A stretch of 64,000 bases of DNA, from NCBI GenBank assembly GCA_963850295.1, contig CAWKKU010000013.1, positions 249,437-313,436 on the forward strand. The letters are read 5' to 3'. The DNA comes from Vicinamibacterales bacterium (lineage in GTDB: Bacteria > Acidobacteriota > Vicinamibacteria > Vicinamibacterales > JAMQPK01). Every line of letters begins with the position of its first letter. Position 1 is the first letter of the stretch. Below are positions 12,436 through 58,090 of this stretch, one piece after another. The notes under the pieces are model-generated. The model saw only the letters and a list, made by a program, of their open reading frames with translations. It was not told the origin of the DNA and ran no database searches. Made by a program: the position numbers and the translations under genes.

Positions 12436-14730
12436 GTGGCACGATCGACGCTCTCGCGCCGCGTCAGTGAATTCGTCGGCGTCGCGCTCTTCGGAGCGGC
12501 GCTGCTCTGGCTCATTGCGCTCGCGACCTACGAGCCGACCGATCCGGTCTGGTTCTTCAGCGCCGGGTCCGGAGCGCAGCCGGACAACTTCGCCGGCCGC
12601 GTCGGCGCGTTCCTCGCGGAGCTGTCGTTTCAGCTCATGGGCTACGCCTCGTACCTCATTCCCGCGGTGATGGTCGTGCTCGGCTGGCACAAATTCTGGT
12701 GCCGCGACGTCGACGCGCAATACACCAAGGTGGTCGGCGCCGGTCTGCTCTTCGGCTGTCTCAGCGCGCTGCTGAGCCTCGCGTTCGGCAGCGTGGAGGT
12801 GGCGGGCAAGTCGTTCCGCTCGGGGGGGTACCTGGGCGAATGGCTGGCGGCGTCGATGGCCGAGTACCTGAATCGCACGGGCTCGATCATCGTCATTCTC
12901 ACGCTGCTGTTTCTCGCCGTGATGTTATCGACGCAGTTCTCCCTCGGCAGAATGTTCTCGTCGGCGTCCGCGGTGAGCCGATCCGGCAGCTCGCGGCTGT
13001 TCGGCAAGTTCCGGGGCTGGATGGACGAGCGGCGCCGTGCGCGCCAGCGGAAGGCGCTGCTCGAAAAGCAGGGAAAAAAGCCCGATGCTGTGCCCGCCGT
13101 TGCCGCGGTGAAGAAAGCCCGTCGAGGCCGCGTTGGTCCGCGGCGGCGAAGGAGGAAGACGATGCGCCGCCGCCGCTGCAGATTGACGAGCGGCGTCCGC
13201 ACGTGACCAAGCGGCTCAAACCGGTCGAAAACCCGCCGCTGCCGCTGCCCGATCCCGAGCCGCGCGCACCACGCCGTATCGGCGCGTTCACGATCCCGCC
13301 GCTGTCGCTGCTCGACGCTCCGAAAGCCGAGCGAAAGATCGACGAGCGCGAGCTCATGGAAGGCGCGCGCCTGCTCGAAGAGAAATGCCGCGAGTTCGCC
13401 GTCGAGGGCGCCGTCGCGCAGATTCATCCGGGACCGGTCGTCACGACGTTCGAATTCAAGCCGGACGCCGGCGTGAAGTACGGAAAAATCACCGGCCTGG
13501 CCGACGATCTGTGCCTGGCGATGCAGGCCGAATCGGTGCTGATCGATCGCATTCCGGGGAAATCGACGGTCGGCATTCAGATCCCGAACCACACGCGCGA
13601 GCAGATTTCCCTTCGCGAGCTGCTGCAGTCGGAGGTCTACCAGCGCTCGGCGTCAAAGCTGACGCTCGCCCTCGGCAAGACGATCCATGGCGAGCCCTAC
13701 ATGACCGACCTCGCCCACATGCCTCACCTGCTCATCGCCGGCTCGACCGGGTACGGGCAAGTCGGTCGCCATCAACTCGATGCTGTCGAGCATTCTCTTC
13801 CGCGCGACGCCGGAAGAGGTGCGGCTGATCATGATCGACCCGAAGCGCGTCGAGCTCGGGATGTACGAAGACATCCCTCATCTCATGACGCCCGTCGTCG
13901 TCGATCCGAAGCTCGCGGTCAACGCCCTGCGCTGGGCGGTCAAGGAGATGGAAGACCGCTACAAAAAACTCGCTGCCGCCGGCGTCCGCAACATCGAGCA
14001 GTTCAACCGCAACGCCGCGCACGCGGCGAAGGAGAAGTCGCCGGACGAAGAGCTGCTGATGCCCCTCCCCTACATCGTCGTCGTCATCGACGAGCTGGCC
14101 GATTTGATGATGGTGGCGCGCGGCGACGTCGAGGAATCGATCGCACGGCTGGCGCAGATGGCGCGCGCGGTCGGCGTGCATCTCCTGCTGGCGACGCAGC
14201 GGCCGTCGGTGGACGTCATCACCGGCCTCATCAAAGCCAACCTGCCGTCGCGCATTTCGTTCCGCGTGCAGTCGAAGATCGACTCGCGAACGATTCTCGA
14301 CGGCAACGGCGCGGAGCAACTGCTCGGACGCGGCGACATGCTCTTCATGCCTCCGGGTTCGTCTCGCGCCGTGCGCCTGCACGGGCCGTACATTTCGGAG
14401 CAGGAAAGCGCGCGGCTCGCAAGCTTTCTGCGAAAACAGGGCAAGCCCGTCTACAACACGGCCATTACGGCCGAAGAGAAGAAGCTCGACGGCGGCATCG
14501 AGATGGAAAAAGACGACCTGTACGACGAAGCCTCGCGGATCGTCGTGTCGAGCGGCCAGGCGTCGATTTCCTATCTTCAGCGGCGCCTTCGCATCGGCTT
14601 CAGCCGCGCCGCCCGGCTGGTCGACATGATGGAAATGGACGGGCTCGTCTCCCCCGGCGTTGGCGGCAAGCCGCGGGAAGTGCTGGTGGACAAAAGTTAT
14701 TTCGACGAGGTTGATGCGCAGCTTCGGTGA
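12436..14730 (+). CDS. ftsK: DNA translocase FtsK; two frame disruptions in this sequence
   Basis: GTG start 2 nt after the rnj stop, then N-terminal TM helices (12436-13100). The middle frame 12699..14714 carries ..VAQIHPGPVVTTFEFKP... The motor frame 13780..14730 carries the AAA+ and gamma domains. The Walker A GSTGTGKSV is restored by deleting one g of ggg 13749-13751. The other shift lies near 13110-13150. Confidence 0.88.
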
Positions 14731-16489
14731 ACGTCTTGCCGGCGCGCTGGTCATGCTTGCGTGCGCTTCGAGCGCCGCAGCGCAGACGACTGCCCCGCCG
14801 GCGGAACAGCCGGCCGTGAGAACAGCCGCGGGCGCCCGTTATGAAGCGCTGCAGGAGCAAGAGCTGCTCGTCTCGACCTCCGCCGCCTCCGGACCGGACG
14901 ATTTCCGGTTCGTCATCAACAATTACTGGAGCTTCGTCCGGCGGCAGCCGTCGAGCGGCTACGCCGACAACGCGCTCTGGCAGGCAGGGAGCCTGTCGCA
15001 CGAGGCGCTGCGACGCTTCAACCAGGAACGCGACCGCTATCGCGCGGTGCAGTTGTTCCAATGGCTGCGCGACCAGTATCCGCACAGTCCGCTTCGCGCA
15101 AACGCGTCTGCCGCGATCGAACAGATTCAGGCCGGTCCCGCCGCGGCCGCCGCTCCGGACTCGACCATTCGCGCCGTGCACCGTGAGGTGTTGCCTGAGG
15201 TCGTGCGCATCACCGTCGAGCTCGACAAGGAAGTGCCGTTCTATCAGGAGCGCATCGACGGACCGTCGCGCCTGTTCTTCGATCTGAAAGGCACGAAGAC
15301 GGTTCCCGCGCTGGTCGATGCGACGTTCCGGTACGACTCGGACGTGGTGCGGCACATCCGCCTCGGCCGGCATCCCAACAGCATTACCCGGATCGTGCTG
15401 GACCTGGAGAACGTGGCGCGCTACAGCGTGTTCACCCTCTACACACCGTATCGCATCGTCATAGACGCCGAGCGGGCTCCGGGAGTGCGCTTCACGCCGT
15501 CGAAGGAGGCGGAGACTGCGGGGACGGTTGCCGTGGCGACGCAGAAACCACGTCCCGTCGCTGGCTCAACGGCTACGTCCAGCAAGCCACTCTCACCCGC
15601 TGCACGCGTCGCACCAGTGACGCCGATCGCGTCTTCCGCACCGGTGATACCGCCCGCGCCGGCCGCAGCGCCGGCAACCGGCACCGCGAGCATCCCCTCA
15701 GGCGCCGTCGCGCCCGTCGCGCCGAGCACGCCCTTGCCGCCTTCCGCCAACAAAGGCGGGTCGTTTTCGGTTGCGCGGCAGCTTGGCCTCGGCGTTTCAA
15801 AGATCGTCATCGATCCCGGCCATGGCGGCCACGATCCGGGCGCGTCGTCTTTTGGCGCAACCGAGGCGGACCTCGTGCTCGATGTCGCGCTCCGTCTCGA
15901 AAAGCTGTTGCAGCAAGAAGGGGTGGACGTGTTGCTCACGCGCCGGACCAATGACTATGTGTCCCTCGAAGAACGAACGGAAATGGCGAATCGGGAATCT
16001 GCGGATCTTTTCTTGTCGATTCATGCCAACGCGAGCGCGAACCCCGCCGCGCGCGGCGTGGAAACCTATTTCCTGAACTTTGCCTTGAATCCGCAGGCCG
16101 AAGCGGTTGCCGCGCGCGAGAACGCCGCGTCCGAAAAAACGATGAACAGCCTGCCGGGAATCATCAAGGCGATCACCCTGAACAACAAGCTGAACGAGTC
16201 GCGCGAGTTCGCGTCGACCATTCAGCGCGCGCTCGTGCGCGGTCTGCGTCCCGGCAACAAGGAACTGAAGGACCTGGGAGTGAAACAGGCGCCGTTCATG
16301 GTCCTGATTGGCGCCGCCATGCCGAGCGTGCTCGCGGAGATTTCGTTCGTCACCAACCAGCAGGAATCACGCCTGTTGAAGACTCCCGCCTACCGCGACC
16401 GAATAGCCGCTTCCCTGCTCGCCGGGATTCAGCGCTACCAGCAATCACTCAAGAAGGTCGAACGGGTGGCGTTGGAATCTAAGAACTGA
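14714..16489 (+). CDS. N-acetylmuramoyl-L-alanine amidase with an N-terminal TPR-like region and an AMIN domain
   Basis: Signal peptide MRSFGERLAGALVMLACASSAAAQ, an AMIN-like block (VVRITVELDKEVPFYQERIDGPSRLFFDL), a Pro/Ala linker and the Amidase_3 core (IVIDPGHGGHDPGA...SIHANA). The ATG overlaps the ftsK end. Confidence 0.85.
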   Translation: MRSFGERLAGALVMLACASSAAAQTTAPPAEQPAVRTAAGARYEALQEQELLVSTSAASGPDDFRFVINNYWSFVRRQPSSGYADNALWQAGSLSHEALRRFNQERDRYRAVQLFQWLRDQYPHSPLRANASAAIEQIQAGPAAAAAPDSTIRAVHREVLPEVVRITVELDKEVPFYQERIDGPSRLFFDLKGTKTVPALVDATFRYDSDVVRHIRLGRHPNSITRIVLDLENVARYSVFTLYTPYRIVIDAERAPGVRFTPSKEAETAGTVAVATQKPRPVAGSTATSSKPLSPAARVAPVTPIASSAPVIPPAPAAAPATGTASIPSGAVAPVAPSTPLPPSANKGGSFSVARQLGLGVSKIVIDPGHGGHDPGASSFGATEADLVLDVALRLEKLLQQEGVDVLLTRRTNDYVSLEERTEMANRESADLFLSIHANASANPAARGVETYFLNFALNPQAEAVAARENAASEKTMNSLPGIIKAITLNNKLNESREFASTIQRALVRGLRPGNKELKDLGVKQAPFMVLIGAAMPSVLAEISFVTNQQESRLLKTPAYRDRIAASLLAGIQRYQQSLKKVERVALESKN

Positions 16490-16497
16490 CGCAGGCG

Positions 16498-16612
16498 CTA
16501 AATCTATACACTAGAATCTAAAATCTAAAATCTAGAATTAAATCTAGAATCTAAAGTGCTCGGTCGCTGGGCTCCAAATTCCAGATTCTAGATTACAGAT
16601 TCTAGATTCACC
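16498..16612. repeat. CTAG-rich heptamer tandem array (AATCTAR)n, GC-rich core, then an inverted array (AGATTCT)n
   Basis: Left array ctaaatctatacactagaatctaaaatctaaaatctagaattaaatctagaatctaaag. Core tgctcggtcgctgggctcc. Right array aaattccagattctagattacagattctagattcacc. aatctagaatct (16541-16552) is exactly complementary to agattctagatt (16583-16594 and 16598-16609). The element fills the gap between convergent genes. Confidence 0.9.
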
Positions 16613-16626
16613 TTAATGAGCTCGCG

Positions 16627-18502
16627 TCACCTGGCGAGCAACTTCTCAATTTCGTCCATCACCCGGTTCATCTTTGCTATGGTCAGCTCGAGCGGGCGGT
16701 CGGTGGTCATGTCGACGCCGGCATCGGTCAGCAGGTCGATCGGGTATTTCGATCCGCCCGCCGACAGGAACTGCATGTAACGCTTCGTCGCCGCAGCGCC
16801 GGCGGCGCCCGGCGTCAGCACTCCTTCAGAGAGCGCCGTCGCAGCGGTGAAAGACGTCGCGTACTGAAAGACGTAATAGCTGCTGTAGAAGTGCGGCACG
16901 AAGCTCCATTCGTGCTGGATGTAGTCGTCGACGACGCAGACGCCCTGGTCGTGGCCGTAATACTTCTTGGTGACGTCGATGTACAGCTTGGCGATCGAGT
17001 CGCCGGTGAGCGGCCGTCCCTGCTGCGCCATCTCATGGACGCGGAGCTCGAAGTCGGCAAACTGCGTCTGGCGGAACACCGTCGACTTCAGCGTCTCGAG
17101 ATAGTTGCCGAGAATGGCGATGCGTGTGGCCGTATCCTTCACCCGCTTCAGCATGTGGTCGAGGAGCAGATCTTCGTTGAACTGCGACGCCACCTCGGCG
17201 ACGAAGGTGTGATAGCCCGCCAGCTGGAATGGCTGCGACCTGTTCGAGTGATAGCTGTGCATCGCGTGGCCGAGCTCATGCGCGACGGTCGACATGTCGT
17301 AGTACTTGCCGTTGTAGTTGATTAACGTGTAAGGATGGACGTCGTAGGCGCCGCCTGTGGCGTACGCGCCGGACCGTTTCCCTTCATTCGGCAGCAAATC
17401 GATCCACCGCTCCGCAAACGCGCGGTTGATTGCCGCTACATAATCGGAGCCCAGTGGAGCGACGGCGGCGGCGATGTTGGCCTGGGTTTCCTCGGGCGTA
17501 TAACTGAGGTCGACCGAGCCCACGAGCGGCGCATACAGATCGTAATAATGCAGGGTGTCAACGCCCATCATGCGCTTGCGGAGTCTGAGATACCTGTGGA
17601 ACGACGGCAGGCTGCGGTTGACGCCCTCGATGAGACGCGAGTACACGGAGACGGGAATATTCGACGCATCGAGTCTGGCAGCGAGGTCGGATTCGTAGTT
17701 GCGCGCCTTCGCGTAGAACTGGCTGGCGCGCACGGAGCCGCTCAGCGTCGATCCAAGGGTCTGGCTGAACTTCCCCAGCGCGCCGAAATACGCGGACATC
17801 GCGGCCTCGCGGTCGGCGCGATTCGAGGACTGCCGGACGATCGCAAACGTCTGCTGATCCAGTTTCACCGCGCGGCCGTCGCCGAGGGTGATCGTCGGAT
17901 ACGGAAACTCCGCGTTGAGCAGCAATCCTGAGGTAGCGGAAGATGCGCCGGCCACTGGCGAGACGCTGGCCAGTATCCGCTCCTCCGCCTCGCTCAAGGT
18001 ATGGGGAGCCCGCCGCACAATTTCGTCGATGATAAAACCGGTACGACGCGAGGCGGGGCTCGACTGAGAGAAATTGCGCGAGCTTCGGGGCGCCGATTTG
18101 AAGGATCTCGGGTTCGACGAAGGCCACCTCGGAGCCGAACGACGCGCCGATCAACGACATCTCCTGGCGCATGCCCTGATGCTCCGCATGCCGTGTATCT
18201 TCGTCAGCGCGCAGAAACGCGTACGTCCCCAGCCGGCTCATCGTCTTTCTGAGCGCCGTGATGCCCTCGAGCGCGTCGGCGAGCGCCGCAGGCGAATGGC
18301 CGAGCGTGCCCTTGAAACGCCGAACGCCGGGAATCTCCTTTTCGAGCAGATCCTTTGCCGCACGCCACGCCGCGCCCGATGCGTAGATCGGCGTCAGATC
18401 CCACTTGTATTTTTCGGGAATGCTGGCGCGGTCGCGCTGCTGAGCCAGCGCGCCGGCGCTCAGCACAATGACGGCCACGACAACGGAAAGACGCGGCAGC
18501 AT
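16627..18502 (-). CDS. pepF: Oligoendopeptidase F (M3 family metallopeptidase), secreted; one frameshift in this sequence
   Basis: Fragment 17558..18502 has a signal peptide plus the PepF N-terminal region. Fragment 16627..18018 has the zinc motif VAHELGHAMH. The frames join near 18035 (..YRF(Y/I)IDEIVRRAPHTLSEAEE..). Confidence 0.85.
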
Positions 18503-18539
18503 TCCTATCCCTCAGCGGACCCTGCTGTACAATCGTGCG

Positions 18540-18797
18540 ATGCAGGCCCCAAGCCCGCCCATCATAGTGAAAATCGTCGAAGAAAACGAAATCGCCGGAC
18601 TCGGCGACGTCATGATGGAAGCGATCGGCCTCACCGGCGTCATCGCTATCGGGGCGCTGCTATTCGGCCTGGTGCTGGCGACGATCATCATCAGCTACCG
18701 AAAACTGCACGCCCGCCTGCATCCCGACGAAGACGCGCAAACGCAGCCGCTGGGATTGACGCCGACGGACTCGGTGAACGTTGAATCTAAAATCTAG
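18540..18797 (+). CDS. Small single-pass membrane protein (hypothetical)
   Basis: Internal ATG of ORF 18468..18797: MQAPSPPIIVKIVEENEIAGLGDVMMEAIGLTGVIAIGALLFGLVLATIIISYRKLH... TGTACAAT (extended -10-like) lies 7 nt upstream. The last codons gaa tct aaa atc tag lie inside the heptamer array. Confidence 0.5.
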   Translation: MQAPSPPIIVKIVEENEIAGLGDVMMEAIGLTGVIAIGALLFGLVLATIIISYRKLHARLHPDEDAQTQPLGLTPTDSVNVESKI

Positions 18798-18815
18798 AAT
18801 CTAAAATCTAGAATT
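18783..18815. repeat. CTAG-rich heptamer array (GAATCTA/AAATCTA)n
   Basis: gaatctaaaatctagaatctaaaatctagaattt. It contains the stop codons of both convergent genes (TAG 18795-18797 on plus; complement of 18808-18810 on minus). Confidence 0.92.
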
Positions 18816-19227
18816 TACGATCTGGGAACGCGCGAGAGAACGTCTGCTTCCGCTTGGATTGCCTGCGTGTCGCCTCTTGCGCCGCCCAATTGGCGCGCGA
18901 CGTTTCCAGCGATGCTGTGAAGATTGCACAGAGTTCAGTGGCTTCGCAAAGGAGGGTCTGGTCTGTTGCGATTGAGCCCTTCTGCATGAATTCGAGCCAG
19001 CCAACGGATTCGTCGATTTCCTCGACAGCGATGCCGAGCTTGGCGATGAACTCGGGACGCGATCGGCCCCGCTTTGACGCGCGGTAGTTCGACCATGCCG
19101 ATGTTGCGGCTTTGTAAAACTGCACGCCAGGCACCTGAGCGTCGGGCGACTTCGGCAGCTTTCGGTAAAACGCTAGTGACTCCAAGGCAAATTGTTCGGC
19201 TCGCGCGAGCAGTTCTGCTGAATTCAT
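18808..19227 (-). CDS. Four-helix-bundle protein (23S rRNA intervening-sequence protein family)
   Basis: MNSAELLARAEQFALESLAFYRKLPKSPDAQVPGVQFYKAATSAWSNYRASKRGRSRPEFIAKLGIAVEEIDESVGWLEFM... fits the family pattern (LP...., S..N..EG..R.S..EF...L.IA..E..E...WL). An internal ATG was chosen; the track ORF extends to 19293. Confidence 0.75.
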   Translation of the reverse strand: MNSAELLARAEQFALESLAFYRKLPKSPDAQVPGVQFYKAATSAWSNYRASKRGRSRPEFIAKLGIAVEEIDESVGWLEFMQKGSIATDQTLLCEATELCAIFTASLETSRANWAAQEATRRQSKRKQTFSRAFPDRKF

Positions 19228-19333
19228 GGCCTGACTAACCGCATGTAACGTGCCGTCACGAAAGACGGCCAATGTGTGACATGACGCAGCCATGATGGCA
19301 ATTCGTGAGACGCCGCAACGCTATAAAGTGTTC

Positions 19334-19368
19334 AGATTTTAGATTCTAGATTCTAGATTCTAGATTCC
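19334..19368. repeat. CTAG-rich heptamer array (AGATTCT)n, inverted relative to 18783-18815
   Basis: agattttagattctagattctagattctagattcc. Positions 19334-19352 are the exact reverse complement of 18791-18809 (19 nt). The array contains the pepA stop codon. Confidence 0.92.
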
Positions 19369-20867
19369 TGACTCCCCAATCTTCTCGCAACTTCCACCAA
19401 CGTCCGTACTCCGACGCCCGTCGGCCCCTTGGGCATGAACGGCTTGTTCTCCTCCGCCCAGGCGGTGCCTGCGATATCCAGGTGGACCCATGGAAGGCCG
19501 CCGGTGAACTCCTTCAGGAAGAGCGCGGCGGTGATGGCGCCGCCGATGCGGCCGCCGGTGTTGATCATGTCCGCGATTTCGCTTCGGAGCTGATCCTTGT
19601 ATTCATCGAACAGCGGAAGCTGCCAGCAGCGATCGCCGGCGCGCTCTGCCGCAGCGCCGACCTGATCCACGAAGGTCTGCGGCGTGCCGAAGAGGCCGCT
19701 GGTGATCTTGCCGAGCGCGATGCTGATCGCGCCGGTGAGCGTGGCGATGTCGATTAGATGTGTCGCGCCCATTTGCTGCGCGTACCAGAGCCCGTCTCCG
19801 AGAATGAGCCGACCTTCGGCGTCGGTGTTGACCACCTCGACGGTCTTGCCCGACGCGCTCGTCAGGACGTCCCCTGGTCTCAGCGCGCGGCCACCCAGCA
19901 TGTTCTCCGCAATCGGGATCACGCCGACCACGCGGAGCGGTATCTTCAACTCGGCAATCGCGCGAATGGCGCAGGCGACGGCTGCTCCTCCCGCCATATC
20001 GTCTTTCATGCGATCCATCTCCGCCGCGGGTTTGATGGAGATGCCACCGGTGTCGAAGGTGATGCCCTTCCCCACTAAACCGAGCACAGGTGTGTCGGGC
20101 GCCCCGGCCGGCTCGTAGCGGATCGCGACCAGCCGTGGAGCCTCCGCGCTCGCGCGGCCGACGCCGAGCAGCATGCCCATGCCGAGCCGCTCGAGTTGCT
20201 CTTGCTCCAGCACCTCCACAGCCAGACCGCCGCGGCGCGCAATGTCGCGCAACCGCTCGCTGAACACCGAGGGAATCAGTGCGTTCCCGGGCTCGTTATC
20301 GAGCGCACGGGCGAGGTTGCAGTGTTCTCCAATCACCCGCCCTCGTGTGACGGCTTCCGCCGTTGACGGCGATGCGTCGGAAACGAGGATCGCGAGTCGC
20401 TCCAGCTCGAACGGTTCGTACCCCGCTGTCTTGTAGCGTCCGCTGTCGAACTCCGCAAGCGTCAACCCTTCGGCAATCGCTTGCACCATGTCCGCAGAAG
20501 CCAGGGGGCCATCCGCGACGACCGTCAGGCGCGGGATCTTCTTCTGCCTGGCGAGCAATCCCACCGCCGTCGCAGAGCGCCGGGCGCGATCGATGGTGAA
20601 CTCAGACTGTTGCCCGAGACCGATCACTGCAAGCCGCCGGGGTTTGAACGTGGAGTCCGTAATCGGGGTGAAGAAGTGCTCGAACAGCTTGCCGCTGAAC
20701 TCCTTCGTCGCCATGGCGCGATCCACCTCGCGGCCGGTCGGCGCCGACCAGCGCGCGAGCGCGGCTGGCTGCTCTTCGAATGAAGAGGCGATTACAAGAT
20801 CCGTGTCCGCGGAGCGCGGATCACCCGTAAGTACATCCATCAGTTTGGATTTGTGTCCGTCCGTCAT
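19353..20867 (-). CDS. pepA: Leucyl aminopeptidase (M17)
   Basis: 504-aa ORF with VGKGITFDTGGISIKP and NTDAEGRLILGD motifs. The C-terminal codons cag gaa tct aga atc tag are encoded by the heptamer array. Confidence 0.92.
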   Translation of the reverse strand: MTDGHKSKLMDVLTGDPRSADTDLVIASSFEEQPAALARWSAPTGREVDRAMATKEFSGKLFEHFFTPITDSTFKPRRLAVIGLGQQSEFTIDRARRSATAVGLLARQKKIPRLTVVADGPLASADMVQAIAEGLTLAEFDSGRYKTAGYEPFELERLAILVSDASPSTAEAVTRGRVIGEHCNLARALDNEPGNALIPSVFSERLRDIARRGGLAVEVLEQEQLERLGMGMLLGVGRASAEAPRLVAIRYEPAGAPDTPVLGLVGKGITFDTGGISIKPAAEMDRMKDDMAGGAAVACAIRAIAELKIPLRVVGVIPIAENMLGGRALRPGDVLTSASGKTVEVVNTDAEGRLILGDGLWYAQQMGATHLIDIATLTGAISIALGKITSGLFGTPQTFVDQVGAAAERAGDRCWQLPLFDEYKDQLRSEIADMINTGGRIGGAITAALFLKEFTGGLPWVHLDIAGTAWAEENKPFMPKGPTGVGVRTLVEVARRLGSQESRI

Positions 20868-20911
20868 TTTTGTCGTGGGGCGTTAATGCCAGTTAAGGCC
20901 ATTATGCATGC

Positions 20912-21385
20912 TTGCTCTCGGGATTCGCGCTGTGTACGATCTCACCCATGGTTCCCCCTCCTGTAACCACTACGGTGTGCGCCGGGGCATTGCTGCTTGC
21001 CGCAGTCATGTACCCCGTTGGGGCGCAGGAGAAACAGGAGAAGAAAGACGCCAAACGTCCTTCGCTGTCGCTCAAGGCGACGCCGGGGACGGGAATGGTG
21101 CCGGTGCGTGTCTCGGCAACCGCCGAGTTCAAGGGCGGCGACGACGACTTTCAGGACTACTACTGTCCGGCGTTCGAGTGGAACTGGGGCGACGGCACCG
21201 TCTCGGAACAGTCAAACGATTGTGAGCCGTACGAGTCGGGCGTATCACTGATCAAGCGGCGCTACACCGGGTCCCACACCTACAAACGTGCCGGAGCCTT
21301 CCGCATCGTTTTTCGGCTGAAGCACCGCGACAAGGTGCTCACCTCGCAGACGACAATCGTCAGGCTGCTTGGCGGCGGGTTTTGA
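20912..21385 (+). CDS. Secreted PKD-like domain protein (hypothetical)
   Basis: Hydrophobic N-terminus followed by a PKD-type signature (FEWNWGDGT....SHTYKRAGAFRIVFRL). The start is uncertain (alternative Met at about 20947). Confidence 0.6.
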   Translation: MLSGFALCTISPMVPPPVTTTVCAGALLLAAVMYPVGAQEKQEKKDAKRPSLSLKATPGTGMVPVRVSATAEFKGGDDDFQDYYCPAFEWNWGDGTVSEQSNDCEPYESGVSLIKRRYTGSHTYKRAGAFRIVFRLKHRDKVLTSQTTIVRLLGGGF

Positions 21386-21399
21386 TCATCTTCGCTGCC

Positions 21400-21427
21400 A
21401 GAGCTTAGAGCAAAGAGCTTAGAGCGA
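21400..21427. repeat. Heptamer array (AGAGCWW)x4, the reverse complement of the TYTGCTC family
   Basis: agagctt agagcaa agagctt agagcga. It encodes the last residues (..FALSSLL) and the TAA stop (complement of 21405-21407) of the JAMM gene. Confidence 0.88.
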
Positions 21428-34276: not shown

Positions 34277-36506
34277 ATGCGTTCGATTCGAAACGACTTC
34301 CTCGTGTTCGCTGTAGTTGCGGCCTGGACGGTGGCGCTCGCCGCCTCGAAGCCGGTCTTCTGGCAAACCGCCACGTTGAACGACTTTCTGCGGGGCGAGG
34401 CCGAGAACCTCTCCGTCGACGGACATGGCCGGCTCGTGCTGGGACCTGCGACCGAGATGGTGGCCGACACCACCGCTCCGTTCCTGTGGGCGATGGTCGT
34501 GGCCCCCGACGGCGCGATTTACGTCGGAACGGGCAACGAAGGCAAAGTCCTCAAGGTCGAGAACGGCAAGCCGACGACCTTCTTCGACGCGGCGGAGCTC
34601 GAAGTGCACGCCCTCGCGCTCGCGTCCGACGGTACTCTCTACGCAGCCACGTCGCCTGAAGGGCGCATCTACAAGATCGATCGTTCGGGAAAATCCGCTC
34701 CGTTTTTCGATCCGGACGACAAGTACATCTGGAGCCTGGCGCTCGACGAGAAGGGGAATGTTTACGCCGGCACCGGCGAAAAAGGCGTGATTTACAAGAT
34801 CACCCCGGACGGGAAAGGCAGCCCCTTCTACTCCACCAAGGCGACGCACGTCATTTCCCTCGCCTTCGAGCGCAGCGGGCAGCTGCTCGCGGGTACCGAA
34901 GGCCCGGGCCGTCTCTTCCGCGTCGACACCGTCGGGAAGGCGTTTCTCCTGCTCGATTCGACGTTTCAGGAGATTCGCGCCATTCGTCTCGATGCGCAGG
35001 GCAACATCTTCGTCGCCGCGCTCAGTGGCCGCACGACTGCAAATCAGCCGGCCCTCGCGCCGCCCGCGGATACCACCTCGTCGTCTCCAGCGCGCGAGCC
35101 GGTAGCCACGGTCACAACCGAGGTCACCGCCATTGCGGTCGTCGACACGGGCGGCGCCAGCGTCGGGTCGAGCGAGCCGCCTGCTCGCGAAGATCGGCGC
35201 AGCGGCCGCGGCGCGATCTACCAGAATCCGCCCCGACGGTCTTTGGGACATCCTCTGGGAATCAGGCGACGATTCGCCCTATGACCTGATGTTCGATTCG
35301 TCCGGCGCGCTCATCGTCGGCACAGGACGGAATGGCAAGCTGTACAGCCTGTCGGGCGAGCCCGCCACGGCGACATTGCTGATGCAGGCATCTGCCCAGC
35401 AGGTGACCGGATTTGCGCTCGATGCGAAGAAGAACGTCTACTACGCGACGTCGAACCCCGGAAAGATCTTCAGGCTCTCGTCGCAGCGCGCATCCGAAGG
35501 CACGTATACGTCGCTCGTCCGCGACGCACAGACGGTCGCCGACTGGGGCACGCTCAGCTGGCGCGCATCGGCGCCCACGGGCTCCAAGGTCGATATGTTC
35601 ACGCGCTCGGGTAACACCGCAACCCCGGACGATACCTGGAGCGCATGGAGCGGCCCCTACGCTGTTTCAGAGGGAGAAGAGATCAAGAGTCCCAATGCCC
35701 GGTATCTGCAATGGAAGGCCGTGCTGAGCGGAAAACAGATGACGCCGGTGCTCACCTCCGTGTCTGCCGCCTACGTTCAGCGCAATCTACGGCCCAAGAT
35801 CACGAGCCTCACCGTGCACCCGGCGGGCACCGTGTTTCAGAAGCCATATCCGACCGGAGATCCGGATATCGCCGGATTCGATGACCAGGCTCCCGATCGC
35901 CGCATCCTCAGCTCGACCGCGAATCCTCCCAGCGGATCGTCGGCGCTTGGCCGGCGCGCCTATCAGCGCGGCCTGCAGACGTTCGTCTGGCGCGGCGAAG
36001 ACGCAAACGACGACGAGTTGAGGTACGAAATCCTCTATCGCCGCGAGGGCGAGACGGCATGGAAGTCTCTGAAGTCCGATCTCGATGAAACGATCTTCGT
36101 GTGGGATACCACTTCGGTTCCGAACGGTACTTACGTTGTGAAGGTCGCCGCGTCCGATCGCGCGTCCAACACGCCGGGCGCCGCACTGGATGGTGAGCTC
36201 GAGAGCTCCGCCTTCGACATCGATAACGGACCTCCCGCGGTCAACGTCACCGCATCGCGGCCCGCGAATGGCCGGGTCACGATCCAGTTCGAGGTTCGCG
36301 ACGAATGGTCGTCGATTTCGAAGGTGGAATATTCACTCGACGCGCAGCGCTGGCAGGTCGTCTACCCGCGCGATGGCATCTTCGACTCGCGGAACGAACA
36401 GTTCGAGCTGACGCTGGAAAGCGCGGACGCGGCCAAGGGTCTGATCATCCGCGCCTACGATGCGAAGAACAACTCCGCCACGGCACGGGGGGATGCCCCG
36501 AAGTAA
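34277..36506 (+). CDS. Secreted beta-propeller repeat protein with C-terminal Ig/FN3-like domains; one frameshift in this sequence
   Basis: Repeated blocks (DGAIYVGTGNEGKVLKV, DGTLYAATSPEGRIYKI, KGNVYAGTGEKGVIYKI, SGALIVGTGRNGKLYSL, KNVYYATSNPGKIFRL). Fragments 34277..35284 and 35133..36506 join at ..GAIY(R)IRPDGLWDIL.. when one c of cc 35221-35222 is removed. Confidence 0.7.
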
Positions 36507-36590
36507 GGAAGAACGTAGAACGAAGAACGAAAAGAATCACGCGTGACGGCGTCTCTTTATTCCGTCTTCGTTCTTCGTTTTTCCTTTTCT
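36507..36590. repeat. Paired inverted heptamer arrays (AGAACGW)n / (GTTCTTC)n forming a hairpin between convergent genes; likely terminator
   Basis: agaacgt agaacga agaacga (36510-36530), a loop containing tcacgcgtga, then cgtcttc gttcttc gtttttc (36563-36583). acgaagaacgaa (36520-36531) is complementary to ttcgttcttcgt (36567-36578), and a T run follows on the plus strand. Confidence 0.85.
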
Positions 36591-36593
36591 TGG

Positions 36594-37385
36594 TTATAGA
36601 GTTTTCCACCCGTCCACGCGCACCGAGACATACGCGCGCAGAGGGGCACGGACGGTCGTGTTCGACACCAGCCACACCACATTCTGAGAGACGGGCGTGC
36701 CGGCGGCCCTGGCGGGCTCGAACCGCGCGGTCGCGGCGGCATTGAGGAGCTCTGACAGTTCCCGATGCGTCGGCAGGCGGCGGCCGGGGCGCGTGCGCTC
36801 GCCAATCAGCTCCACGTCTTCGGGGTACCCGTCCGCGGTGACCAGCATGGCGAACACGACTTCTTCGTCGTCCCGATTCATGACCGCTGTGGGCATGATC
36901 GCTTCGGCATACGCGCGGGGCAGCTCGACGGTCGGCAGGTAGATGTCGGTCGTGCGCGCACGCGCGCTCAACGTCATCGCCGCTTTCAGCGATTCAGGGT
37001 GACGGATAGGCGTCTGCGCCAGCAGGAATGCCCCCACCGCGAGACACAGCGAGGCGACAATCGACACGCTCACGCACGCCGAGGCGCGCCGCGGATCGTC
37101 GAAGAGGTTCCGGAAGGTCCGGCCGAAGGACGCCTTCTCCTCGGCGTCCCACCGCTGCAGAATATCTGTCTGCAGACGGCCGAGCCCGGGCATCACTGCG
37201 ACGTCGTCGGTGCGGGCGATCAACTGGAGCGCCTTGCGGATGGCTTCCAGATCGTCTCCCTCGACTCGGCACGAGGGGCAGCGATCCAGATGGTCCGAGA
37301 TGGCGATGCGATCGGCGACAGGCAGCTCTTCGTCGTAAAACGCCGAGAGGTCGGCTTGCACGCGCTCGCAGGTCCAGGTCAGCAT
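36594..37385 (-). CDS. Anti-sigma factor (zf-HC2 N-terminus, one TM helix, periplasmic C-terminal domain)
   Basis: 263-aa ORF MLTWTCERVQADLSAFYDEELPVADRIAISDHLDRCPSCR. A TM segment near ASACVSVSIVASLCLAVGAFLLA. It overlaps the upstream sigma gene by 7 nt. Confidence 0.8.
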   Translation of the reverse strand: MLTWTCERVQADLSAFYDEELPVADRIAISDHLDRCPSCRVEGDDLEAIRKALQLIARTDDVAVMPGLGRLQTDILQRWDAEEKASFGRTFRNLFDDPRRASACVSVSIVASLCLAVGAFLLAQTPIRHPESLKAAMTLSARARTTDIYLPTVELPRAYAEAIMPTAVMNRDDEEVVFAMLVTADGYPEDVELIGERTRPGRRLPTHRELSELLNAAATARFEPARAAGTPVSQNVVWLVSNTTVRAPLRAYVSVRVDGWKTL

Positions 37386-51056: not shown

Positions 51057-51853
51057 ATATTCCGCGCTTTTCGCTCTTCGTTCTCTGCTCTTTGCTCTTT
51101 CTCGCTTCGGCCTGTTCGTCGAATCCGCCGGTCACGGCTGGACCAGGCGAGGCGGATCAGATTCTGCTCGACCGGGGCAATGCGGCACTCAAAGAACGTC
51201 AGTGGAGCCGCGCGCGAACCTATTTTGCGGAACTGCTCGAGTCCTATCCACAGAGCCCGCTGCGCGCCGAGGCGAAGCTGGGCGTCGGCGACACGTGGCT
51301 CGGCGAAAACAACAGCGCCTCGTACGTCTACGCGCAGAATGAGTACCGCGAGTTCCTCGCGTTCTATCCGACGAATCCACGGGCCGACTACGCGCAGATG
51401 CAGCTCGGCATGGTGCATTACAACCAGATGCTGAATCCGCAGCGCGACCAGACCGAGACGAAAGAGGCGATTCGCGAGTTCGAGACGTTTCTCACACGCC
51501 ATCCGTCCAGTGCCCTGCTGCCGCAGGTGAAACAGCGGCTTCGGGAAGCGAAAGACCGGCTGTCCGACTGGGACCTGCAGGTCGGCAACTTCTATCTCAG
51601 CATCCGGCTCTACCCGTCGGCCATCGATCGGTACCGCCATATCCTCAAGAACGACCCGGAATACACCCGGAGAGACGCTCTGTACTTCCACCTAGCGGAA
51701 AGCCTCGAAAAGTCCGAAAAGAAGGCTGAAGCTCTGCCCTATTACGAGCGGCTCCTCAACGAGTTCGACAAGAGCGAACATCTCGAAGAGGCGCGGCGTC
51801 GAGTCGAGCGACTCAAGGGCGAACTGAACATCGCCCCCAAAGCAGAGCTGTAA
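51053..51853 (+). CDS. bamD: Outer membrane protein assembly factor BamD (lipoprotein, TPR-like)
   Basis: 266-aa ORF with lipobox LFLASAC-S and a YfiO/BamD-like repeat pattern (AEAKLGVGDTWL..., ADYAQMQLGMVHYNQ...). Confidence 0.8.
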   Translation: MNIPRFSLFVLCSLLFLASACSSNPPVTAGPGEADQILLDRGNAALKERQWSRARTYFAELLESYPQSPLRAEAKLGVGDTWLGENNSASYVYAQNEYREFLAFYPTNPRADYAQMQLGMVHYNQMLNPQRDQTETKEAIREFETFLTRHPSSALLPQVKQRLREAKDRLSDWDLQVGNFYLSIRLYPSAIDRYRHILKNDPEYTRRDALYFHLAESLEKSEKKAEALPYYERLLNEFDKSEHLEEARRRVERLKGELNIAPKAEL

Positions 51854-57155: not shown

Positions 57156-58046
57156 TCAGTAGAGGGATTTTGACGGGGCGGCGCCAGGTGTCGACAATGA
57201 CCCCTCGGCGCCGCCTCCGGCTTGCTGGACAATCTTCACGCCCGCGCTGGCGCCGACGCGGCTGGCACCGGCCGTCACCAGATTTTTGAGCGCTTCATAA
57301 TCCCGCACGCCGCCGGCAGCTTTGACTCCGATATCCGGACCAACCACCCGCCGCATCAGCTCCACATCCGCGACGGTCGCGCCGCCAGGACCGAAGCCGG
57401 TGGAGGTTTTCACATAGTCGGCGCCGGCCGCTTTGGCCAGTACGCAGGCAGAAATTTTCTCCTCGTCGGTGAGCAGCGCCGCCTCGATGATGACCTTGCT
57501 CAGCACGCGGCACTCGCGGCATGCCTCTACGACGCCCCGGATGTCACGCTCGACGGCCTCCAGATCGCCCGACTTCAGCGCCCCGATGTTCACGACCATA
57601 TCGACTTCGTTGGCGCCGTCGTACACGACACGCCGCGTTTCGGACTGCTTCACATCGCTGGTCGTCGCCCCCAGCGGAAACCCGACGACGGTGCACACCC
57701 CCACCGTGCTGCCCTTCAACAGCCGCGCGCACAGCGAAACCCAGTAAGGATTGACGCAGACCGTGGCAAATCCGAATTCAAGCGCCTCCCTGCAGAGCTT
57801 CTCAATCTCCTGTTTCGTCGCATCAGCCTTCAGCAGCGTGTGATCGATCAGAGACGCCACATTCGTCGGAACCTTGTCGCCGGCGTAGAGCCCCAGCCTC
57901 GAGGCCCCGGCATCGATGACGCCGCGCACGCGGTCGGGACAGCAGTCGTACACGACGGAATGACAGCCGCACGTCCGCGGCCGCCCACGCGCCAGCGCCG
58001 CCGATACCTCCTCGGCAATGATTCTCTGTAGATCAGCCCACTGCAT
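57156..58046 (-). CDS. deoC: Deoxyribose-phosphate aldolase with a ~60-aa Cys-containing N-terminal extension
   Basis: The core runs from ..[20 protein letters not shown]... to ..[14 protein letters not shown].. (Schiff-base Lys). It is preceded by [52 protein letters not shown]. Confidence 0.88.
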
Positions 58047-58088
58047 TTTGCTCTCTGCTCTTTGCTCTCTGCTCTTTGCTCTCCGCTC
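58047..58088. repeat. Heptamer tandem array (TYTGCTC)x6 filling the rpiB-deoC intergenic gap
   Basis: tttgctc tctgctc tttgctc tctgctc tttgctc tccgctc. Positions 58051-58074 are identical (24/24) to 1443-1466 inside glcD. Confidence 0.92.
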
Positions 58089-58090
58089 TA

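Follow-up and report, generated by a model that had tools for sequence, protein, structure and literature searches.

The 64,000-nucleotide (nt) stretch analysed here, which we call the window, spans positions 249,437 to 313,436 of contig CAWKKU010000013.1 from a Vicinamibacterales bacterium (Acidobacteriota; assembly GCA_963850295.1). At the 3' ends of several of its genes lie tandem arrays of 7-nt units of the form AATCTAR, to which an earlier examination of the bare sequence (the original prediction) had drawn attention. We find that inverted-repeat stem-loop elements, situated in the spacers that follow genes, have these arrays as their paired arms, and that one such element, hereafter the cassette, encloses the gene of a four-helix-bundle (4HB) protein, while others enclose no open reading frame (ORF). 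The features concerned are as follows, with positions counted in the window.

14660-16489, plus strand: gene of an AMIN/Amidase_3 amidase, identified by Pfam
16472-16489, plus strand: last codons of the amidase, L-E-S-K-N and TGA, written by the degenerate unit GAATCTA AGAACTG A
16498-16555, plus orientation: array A1, about eight units AAATCTA/GAATCTA, left arm of an ORF-less hairpin
16556-16572, no strand: GC-rich core or loop of the ORF-less hairpin
16573-16612, minus orientation: array A2, about five inverted units, right arm of the ORF-less hairpin
16627-18502, minus strand: gene of an M3 oligopeptidase, identified by Pfam
18540-18797, plus strand: gene of a single-pass membrane protein, 85 amino acids (aa) from ATG 18540, with its last four codons E-S-K-I and its TAG inside A3
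18783-18817, plus orientation: array A3, 4.4 units, 3' arm of the cassette
18808-19227, minus strand: 4HB protein gene, with matches to TIGR02436, PF05635 and PDB 2RLD
19228-19333, minus strand: leader of the 4HB gene, about 105 nt separating the 5' arm from the start codon
19333-19368, minus orientation: array A4, 4.9 units, 5' arm of the cassette, complementary to A3
19353-20867, minus strand: pepA, encoding an M17 leucyl aminopeptidase (identified by Pfam and orthologues), upstream of the cassette and co-oriented with it
36499-36588, no strand: second ORF-less hairpin, (CGAAGAA)n/(TTCTTCG)n, of the same build with another unit

Tandem Repeats Finder reported period-7 arrays at 16500-16555 (8.3 copies), 16573-16609 (5.3 copies), 18784-18814 (4.4 copies) and 19334-19367 (4.9 copies). 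The AATCTAR units run in plus orientation at 16476-16554 and 18784-18817 and in minus orientation at 16582-16608 and 19333-19366. The three loci of the original prediction therefore do consist of arrays, but these are four in number and form two inverted pairs. All 13 matches to the two-unit probe AATCTARAATCTA (with at most one mismatch) fall in 16515-19366, against 0 expected from 100 shuffles, and the single unit is found 18 times where 2.9 would be expected, with 16 of the 18 inside 16476-19366. The AATCTAR arrays of the 64-kb window all lie within 3 kb, the remaining arrays being built from other units. CTAG is rarer in the window than expected (30 occurrences against 72) and 10 of the 30 are inside arrays. 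Head-to-tail 7-nt units in at least three copies, located in spacers or at ORF ends, and many dispersed copies of one unit across the genome characterize the heptameric simple sequence repeats (SSRs) and short tandemly repeated repetitive (STRR) sequences. The window arrays have the first of these properties, and we regard them as a new acidobacterial member of this known class. An assembly artefact, named in the original prediction as a possible objection, does not explain them, since counterpart arrays occupy the same junctions in independent JGI, ENA and NCBI assemblies.

RNA folding upheld the proposed hairpin between convergent genes at 16498-16612, as 16490-16626 folds with -37.1 kcal/mol (z -4.0) as plus-strand RNA and with -47.4 kcal/mol (z -5.1) as minus-strand RNA. 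The hairpin at 36499-36588 reaches a z of about -5 on both strands and adjoins the stop codons of a convergent Big_7 gene (35133-36506, plus) and zf-HC2 anti-sigma gene (36594-37385, minus). In the cassette, 18783-19368 holds, in minus-strand order, the 5' heptamer array, the leader, the 4HB gene of 139 aa and the complementary 3' array. Local alignment of the A4 flank with the reverse complement of the A3 flank scored 24.5, where the maximum among shuffles was 12. In the 606-nt transcript 18775-19380 (minus) both the minimum free energy and the centroid folds pair A4 with A3, closing a stem of about 31 bp, and the predicted fold (-230 kcal/mol, z -4.5) places the 4HB ORF in the loop. A scan for Rho-independent terminators and sigma-70 promoters found none at the arrays, whose stems are AU-rich and have no T-run. 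An Rfam scan of the window returned two tRNAs only and no family at the arrays, where the only traces of other RNA families were sub-threshold look-alikes of miRNA precursors.

The 4HB protein matches TIGR02436 with 49.6 bits (cut-off 24) and PF05635 with 34.1 (cut-off 33.8), both of which are the '23S rRNA intervening sequence protein' family, and its homologues carry a precomputed PF05635 assignment. It also matches PDB 2RLD at the sequence level with an E value of 3.7e-7. Its homologues number 226, several of them labelled 'four helix bundle protein', and in a 20-sequence cross-phylum alignment L24, Q36, T42, S43, S56, K63, E73 and W77 are invariant. The longest ORF extends to 19293; judging by homologues of 139-144 aa, the likely start is ATG 19227 (MNSAELLARAEQF..., 139 aa). 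Leaders in related cassettes measure about 45-170 nt and share a recurring GGTTCTGCAGT...CGCATGGA motif ahead of the ATG. The 4HB gene has a GC content of 57% and a GC content at third codon positions (GC3) of 0.66, and its leader has 54% GC, compared with GC of 62-65% and GC3 of 0.77-0.82 in the flanking genes. The small membrane gene, with a GC3 of 0.77, is gene-like and is kept beside pepA in relatives.

The build of the cassette is that of ORF-bearing 23S rRNA intervening sequences, but its location is in mRNA spacers. The Coxiella 23S element is 428 nt long with an S23p ORF in its loop, its 28-bp terminal inverted-repeat stem is cut by RNase III with the RNase III site at the first repeat, and it contains two to three tandem heptamers GACAGAT whose number depends on the strain (PMC4990558). 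Like the intervening sequences of Coxiella burnetii and Leptospira (PMC4990558), the cassette has inverted-repeat ends that form a long stem around an S23p/PF05635 ORF, and this ORF lies in sense orientation in the host transcript, the window 4HB gene being co-oriented with pepA. Both kinds have ORF-less relatives, and both contain tandem heptamers, which in the rRNA elements are in the 5' part. Unlike the rRNA elements, those of the window lie between protein-coding genes and not in helix 25 or 45 of 23S rRNA, and their arms are almost wholly heptamer arrays. A further difference is that RNase III excision belongs to the rRNA elements and is here proposed by analogy.

On balance we favor the view that the arrays and the 4HB gene constitute intervening-sequence-like stem-loop cassettes in mRNA spacers. 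The cassette would be transcribed by read-through from the upstream gene, its two arrays would pair in the transcript to form a double-stranded RNA stem of about 30 bp, and this stem would be cut by RNase III much as in rRNA intervening sequences. Such cleavage would release the transcript of the ORF, and the 3' end that remains on the host mRNA would be structured. The ORF-less hairpins may then be derivatives or vacant sites, and between convergent genes they could act as 3'-end stabilizers.

The bracketing of 4HB genes by arrays extends well beyond the window. We picked 19 4HB genes from other phyla by protein similarity alone, 18 of them on plasmids (8 first, then 10 more selected from new genera) and 1 on a contig that was the single locus given by a scan of IMG/VR. 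These represent Cyanobacteriota (13 of the 19 genes), Chloroflexota, Bacteroidota, Spirochaetota and Bacillota, with the genera Gloeocapsa, Nostoc, Planktothrix, Pseudanabaena, Dolichospermum, Aulosira, Euhalothece, Chlorohelix, Bernardetia, Chondrinema, Emticicia, Treponema and Monoglobus. Complementarity between the 5' and 3' flanks exceeded all 200 shuffles in 19/19 cases and reached a score of at least 15.5 in 17/19. Judged by eye, tandem heptamers are present in the flanks of almost all 19, with units that are lineage-specific: TCTAAAA, CAATCTC, AATCCCC/AATCGTA, CGAATTA, GACTTCC, CGACTTG (about 37 copies), TGAATTT, CTGGTCA (13 copies), CTCTCCG, TTCCTAA and CTCTTAC. Two Bacteroidota loci are looser: the repeats of Bernardetia are for the most part direct, and the period-7 detector reports no array in Chondrinema. 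As controls we scored 108 genes drawn from this window, a Gloeocapsa plasmid and 50 kb of a Planktothrix plasmid; a score of 15.5 or more was reached by the three 4HB genes alone, and the other 105 stayed at 13.5 or less. Comparison of RNA duplex energies between cognate and non-cognate arms was discarded because GC content dominated it, and shuffled local alignment was used instead. Six of the ten period-7 arrays in the two plasmids (80 kb) flank 4HB genes. Among acidobacterial 4HB genes, complementary flanks were present in 7/8 that could be tested. The association was seen in every sampled 4HB gene, across six phyla, that still has both flanks. Many units of different lineages have an AATC/GATT core in common (AATCTAA, AATCCCC, AATCGTA, CAATCTG and GGGAATC).

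In 13/18 plasmid copies both neighbors are co-oriented with the 4HB gene, often within operons, which fits a dependence on host transcription. The operon settings include DUF1156-4HB-Swt1 HEPN, DrmD-4HB-MmeI, helicase-4HB-N6 methylase and hsdS-4HB-hsdR, and further copies lie upstream of cas1 or separate an RND adaptor from its permease. In many of the plasmid cassettes (loci L209-L228) the 3' array starts at the stop codon, and only 0-6 nt separate the 5' array from the start codon, which leaves no room for an ordinary ribosome-binding site. In a DISARM operon of the Planktothrix plasmid, drmA and the DUF1998 gene are separated by an (AATCGTA)n array of 208 nt whose units all have one orientation (L218, 23465-23672), and the annotated 'hypothetical protein' that overlaps it is probably spurious.

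These operon settings also bear on whether the hairpins are mainly terminators or 3'-end stabilizers between convergent genes, with the 4HB gene a surviving passenger of the loop. All three window hairpins do lie at convergent junctions, adjoining stop codons, and they fold strongly on both strands. They have, however, neither a U-tract nor a GC-rich stem, the terminator scan was empty at the arrays, and the cassettes of other phyla sit inside co-directional operons where termination would be harmful. As such a function also leaves unexplained why one gene family is always the passenger, we consider it quite unlikely that termination or stabilization is the main role of these elements.

We then turn to relatives of the locus, comprising soil-metagenome relatives of pepA and homologues of the 4HB protein (63-83% identical to that of the window), each denoted by an L number; from the names of homologues they probably belong to the Vicinamibacterales (Acidobacteriota). 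Most pepA orthologues have no arrays, and a pepA subclade of 72-77% identity has array-written ends (LESKN, NLESEI, LESKNRI and SETKI, each followed by the stop). Inverted arrays of the type (RAAWCTR)n, the longest with about 13 units, bracket the 4HB gene in L129, L141, L201, L203, L204 and L208, and likewise in L127 as far as the contig end. The neighborhood is the same in L129, L141, L201, L203, L204 and L127 and is different in L208. Three orthologous junctions are occupied by the cassette in some genomes and hold an empty hairpin or remnant arrays in others:

pepA/small membrane gene junction: cassette present in the window, L129, L141 and L130 (a contig that breaks off within the 4HB gene); no cassette in L124 and L131, nor in L132, which keeps short array remnants, or in L126, where all units are in forward orientation
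M3/amidase junction: cassette present in L127 and L203; an empty hairpin in the window and L141
Big_7/zf-HC2 junction: occupied in L208; empty in the window, with another unit (CGAAGAA, against AATCTAR-type arms in L208)

At the last of these the flanking genes are 64-90% identical between the window and L208 and their order is conserved. These site polymorphisms, together with the different neighborhood of L208, suggest that the cassette may be mobile. L201 and L202 come from one sample and differ in their 5' array, which in L201 has about 12 units and in L202 is cleanly missing, whereas both keep the leader, the 4HB ORF and the 3' array. Gene order at the locus also varies. In distant relatives the small membrane gene comes after pepA, is oriented like it and precedes the amidase. 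In closer relatives an RsmH-like methyltransferase gene separates pepA from a small membrane gene that is now convergent, and in the window subclade this methyltransferase is absent and the junction holds arrays or the cassette. The gene beside the cassette is variously an Amidohydro_2, an Rce1-like or an M3 gene (L121-L208 compared with window 16000-21000). Array-mediated inversion was considered for the flipped small membrane gene, and no simple inversion gives the observed gene orders.

As a rival explanation, the arrays could be DNA-level terminal inverted repeats of a transposable element (resembling a miniature inverted-repeat transposable element where no ORF is present), moved by a transposase encoded elsewhere or by the 4HB protein, with the RNA stem irrelevant. 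This would account for the occupied/empty polymorphism at three orthologous junctions, for a 66%-identical cassette in the unrelated neighborhood of L208 and for a 4HB GC3 below that of its neighbors; a transposon origin has also been proposed for rRNA intervening sequences (PMC4990558). Yet neither a target-site duplication nor a sharp element boundary was seen, and empty sites retain both arms, which corresponds neither to clean excision nor to a naive site. The arm units are wholly different at the Big_7/zf-HC2 junction (CGAAGAA in the window and AATCTAR in L208), and the strong co-orientation with host operons (13/18) is not expected of DNA transposition. Nor do we know of any catalytic motif in the four-helix-bundle family. 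We therefore regard a DNA transposon as improbable and retain the RNA-level cassette as our preferred interpretation.

The original prediction was correct that the arrays overlap gene 3' ends and supply last codons and stops, three stops being inside arrays. The small membrane ORF ends in VESKI with its TAG at 18795-18797 inside the array, and the TAG of the 4HB gene (18808-18810, minus) is inside the same array, so that A3 carries two convergent stops 10 nt apart. PepA ends in QESRI with TAG at 19353-19355 (minus), the E-S-R-I codons and the stop being inside A4. The LESKN of the amidase and its TGA at 16487-16489 come from a degenerate unit (GAATCTAAGAACTGA) 10 nt ahead of the array, and the M3 peptidase stop (16627-16629) is outside the arrays, about 15 nt beyond A2. 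The proposal that the repeat writes the ES(K/R)(I/N) tails also holds, because array-free orthologues end differently: pepA in ...RTLxELAFTSxxW..., the small membrane protein in ...LGLTPTEHQ and the amidase in ...KKVQTAALQ, the last two directly before the stop. The tails are therefore repeat-written and not older than the repeat. What does not follow is that a shared tail is a meaningful feature. One strand of every unit contains TAG or TAA and the opposite strand contains TAG, and with a stop in all six frames such tails are automatic. Translation of (GAATCTA)n or (AAATCTA)n in each frame gives ..NLES(K/R)I and a stop in the forward direction and ..ILD(S/F)RF and a stop in reverse, and an ORF running into an array in any frame meets a stop within three units and acquires a predictable tail. 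The pepA tail of L124 is made of GAATCTAAGAAC, a string also found at the amidase end (16472-16489). Only the last 2-10 codons have been replaced by arrays, past the conserved domains (the Pfam M17 match of pepA ends at residue 491 of 504). CTAG as a functional core was ruled out, since relatives have CTGG, CTAA or CTGA variants at the same sites, and as they carry units such as GAAACTG, GGATCTG and similar there, CTAG is not essential. Collectively these data show that the tails, the stops and the CTAG richness are by-products of arrays that have encroached on the last few codons of their neighbors.

The original prediction further held that gain or loss of units would alter tails and stops, and the arrays could in this way be contingency loci in which the 7-nt unit shifts the frame and varies C-terminal tails or stop positions. 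The period of 7 is indeed no multiple of 3, the stops and the final 4-10 codons of four genes lie in arrays, and distant relatives differ in array length. However, all three frames in either orientation stop within three units with the same tail, the tails are outside conserved domains, and no unit was gained or lost among three contigs that are 98% identical (L129, L130 and L141), which have the same unit number and differ by point changes only. A contingency function is thus very improbable. In the same three contigs variable columns amount to 7/47 in the array and 5/155 in the flanks, which is a rate about five times faster in the array.

Several observations weigh against the intervening-sequence-like cassette that we favor. 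Its transcription, stem formation and RNase III cleavage are predictions that we infer by analogy. The arms are only about 80% complementary, and a strand-specific test for G-U wobble among arm mismatches found no bias (26 sense, 29 antisense and 84 transversions), so that there is no positive sign of RNA pairing being under selection. One unit present in opposite orientations could by itself make the arms complementary. Arms can also be lost with the ORF intact, as in L202, which is without a 5' arm, and in L206, which has a remnant only, and some single-armed arrays are unable to form hairpins (window 21400 and 58047; L218 23465). In the Vicinamibacterales-like relatives the cassette is confined to one neighborhood, and any mobility must therefore be slow. 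The cross-phylum sample is small and mostly plasmid-derived. Finally, arrays far outnumber the gene. Exact matches to three units in a row were listed for at least 120 reference-genome stretches, mostly of filamentous Cyanobacteria, and among the matches listed AATCTAR arrays are also found, often as inverted pairs, in Flavobacterium, Ignavibacteria, Planctomycetaceae, Oscillochloris and Acidobacteriota. A tblastn search with the window 4HB protein against the 120 listed array loci of other phyla gave no match, a Pfam scan of the 133 ORFs within 250 nt of those arrays (among the matches listed) found no PF05635, and a custom hidden Markov model run over L001-L200 found no 4HB gene except in the window's own relatives. 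That an AATCTAR array always marks a 4HB gene was ruled out by these searches; the association goes from gene to arrays and not the reverse.

Some of these observations would be expected if the arrays were neutral, slippage-prone heptameric SSRs in tolerant spacers at gene ends, with inversion and the 4HB gene functionally unlinked to them. Over-representation of 7-nt repeats is known from bacterial genomes, and among long SSRs heptamers are reported to be the commonest class in many of them (Mrazek 2007, as cited in PMC4679880). Neutrality also accords with the roughly fivefold faster change of arrays than flanks, with the lack of a compensatory pattern in the arm mismatches and with the many arrays that have no 4HB gene nearby. 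It does not accord with complementary flanks at 19/19 non-acidobacterial and 7/8 testable acidobacterial 4HB genes as opposed to 0/105 controls. Moreover, the inverted orientation of the arms is kept while the unit sequence varies among lineages, and the array position at the pepA end is kept across a clade of about 72-77% protein identity. We accordingly judge a purely neutral origin unlikely, and continue to favor cassettes that act through the transcript.

Other known repeats resemble the window arrays in part. Xanthomonas heptamers (GGGAATC) lie near or overlap stop codons, with 70 convergent inverted pairs in X. campestris (PMC4692102), and TAACTGA repeats in Beggiatoaceae, Cyanobacteria and Bacteroidetes end ORFs by providing stops in all frames (PMC4679880). 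Like these and STRR, the window arrays are 7-nt tandem units in spacers, often at most 50 bp from stops, and the AATCTAR unit is common to arrays of Cyanobacteria, Flavobacterium and Acidobacteriota. In contrast to the link described here, the two heptamer papers (PMC4692102, PMC4679880) draw none to 4HB genes and propose G-quadruplexes or translational regulators, and unlike those hosts the present one is a GC-rich acidobacterium with an AT-rich unit. In the literature searched, only the Coxiella paper links a heptamer array to the 4HB family, for its own element only, and a description beyond that literature is possible. The repetitive extragenic palindromes (REPs) and bacterial interspersed mosaic elements of enterobacteria are likewise extragenic palindromes at gene 3' ends and convergent junctions, and REP RNA hairpins stabilize upstream mRNA. 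Unlike the window elements, whose arms are tandem heptamers, each REP is one imperfect palindrome that has a conserved head, and REPs are mobilized by REP-associated tyrosine transposases (RAYTs) and enclose no 4HB ORF. As for the protein, the Avd of diversity-generating retroelements binds nucleic acid together with a reverse transcriptase. PF05635 is related to Avd, the two having a homologous four-helix-bundle fold and belonging to the same superfamily (PMC10053308). No reverse transcriptase, template or variable repeat was noted among the annotated ORFs near the 4HB gene, and the window was not searched for them.

The window also contains a third unit family, (GCTCTYT)n, whose arrays are single-armed and located at 1443-1466, 21400-21425 (in inverted orientation) and 58047-58089. 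One follows the stop of a gene for a FAD-binding protein, one follows g20912 at a convergent junction, and one is directly next to the start codon, an ATG, of the gene for a DeoC-family aldolase (57156-58046, minus). The sequence at 51065-51099 resembles such an array but is just the part of a gene that encodes a lipoprotein signal peptide. The M3 oligopeptidase gene next to the ORF-less hairpin is present in two overlapping frames (17558-18502 and 16627-18018, minus) with a shift near 18018-18032. Its orthologue in L127 is one unbroken frame, and the gene calls of L203 are fragmented much like those of the window; the split gene is either a pseudogene or the product of an assembly indel error.

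From the window alone the message is a smaller one, that ES(K/R)(I/N) tails and CTAG richness need no special explanation. Beyond it, to our knowledge heptameric tandem repeats have been catalogued since 1990 with no accepted function, and the present data raise the prospect that two old puzzles, that of heptameric repeats and that of the 4HB ORFs of rRNA intervening sequences, may be one. We offer as a tentative possibility that 4HB genes in inverted heptamer arrays form one cross-phylum class of transcript-embedded intervening elements, of which the 23S intervening sequences were merely the members first noticed. The heptameric repeats (cyanobacterial STRR, Xanthomonas GGGAATC and the window arrays) might then largely be ORF-less derivatives or docking sites of this class, and a pentameric protein might recognize the heptamers, as RNA or DNA, and so control processing, expression or spread. 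Such 4HB ORFs are scattered among operons, those of CRISPR, restriction and DISARM loci included, where they have so far been interpreted as system components; 23S_rRNA_IVP genes within cas operons, for example, were interpreted as Cas-associated (PMC3936711). If these genes and arrays are one module, 4HB genes in defense operons would have to be annotated as intervening cassettes and not as parts of the systems that surround them, and the arrays would be predictable sites of RNA processing or stability.

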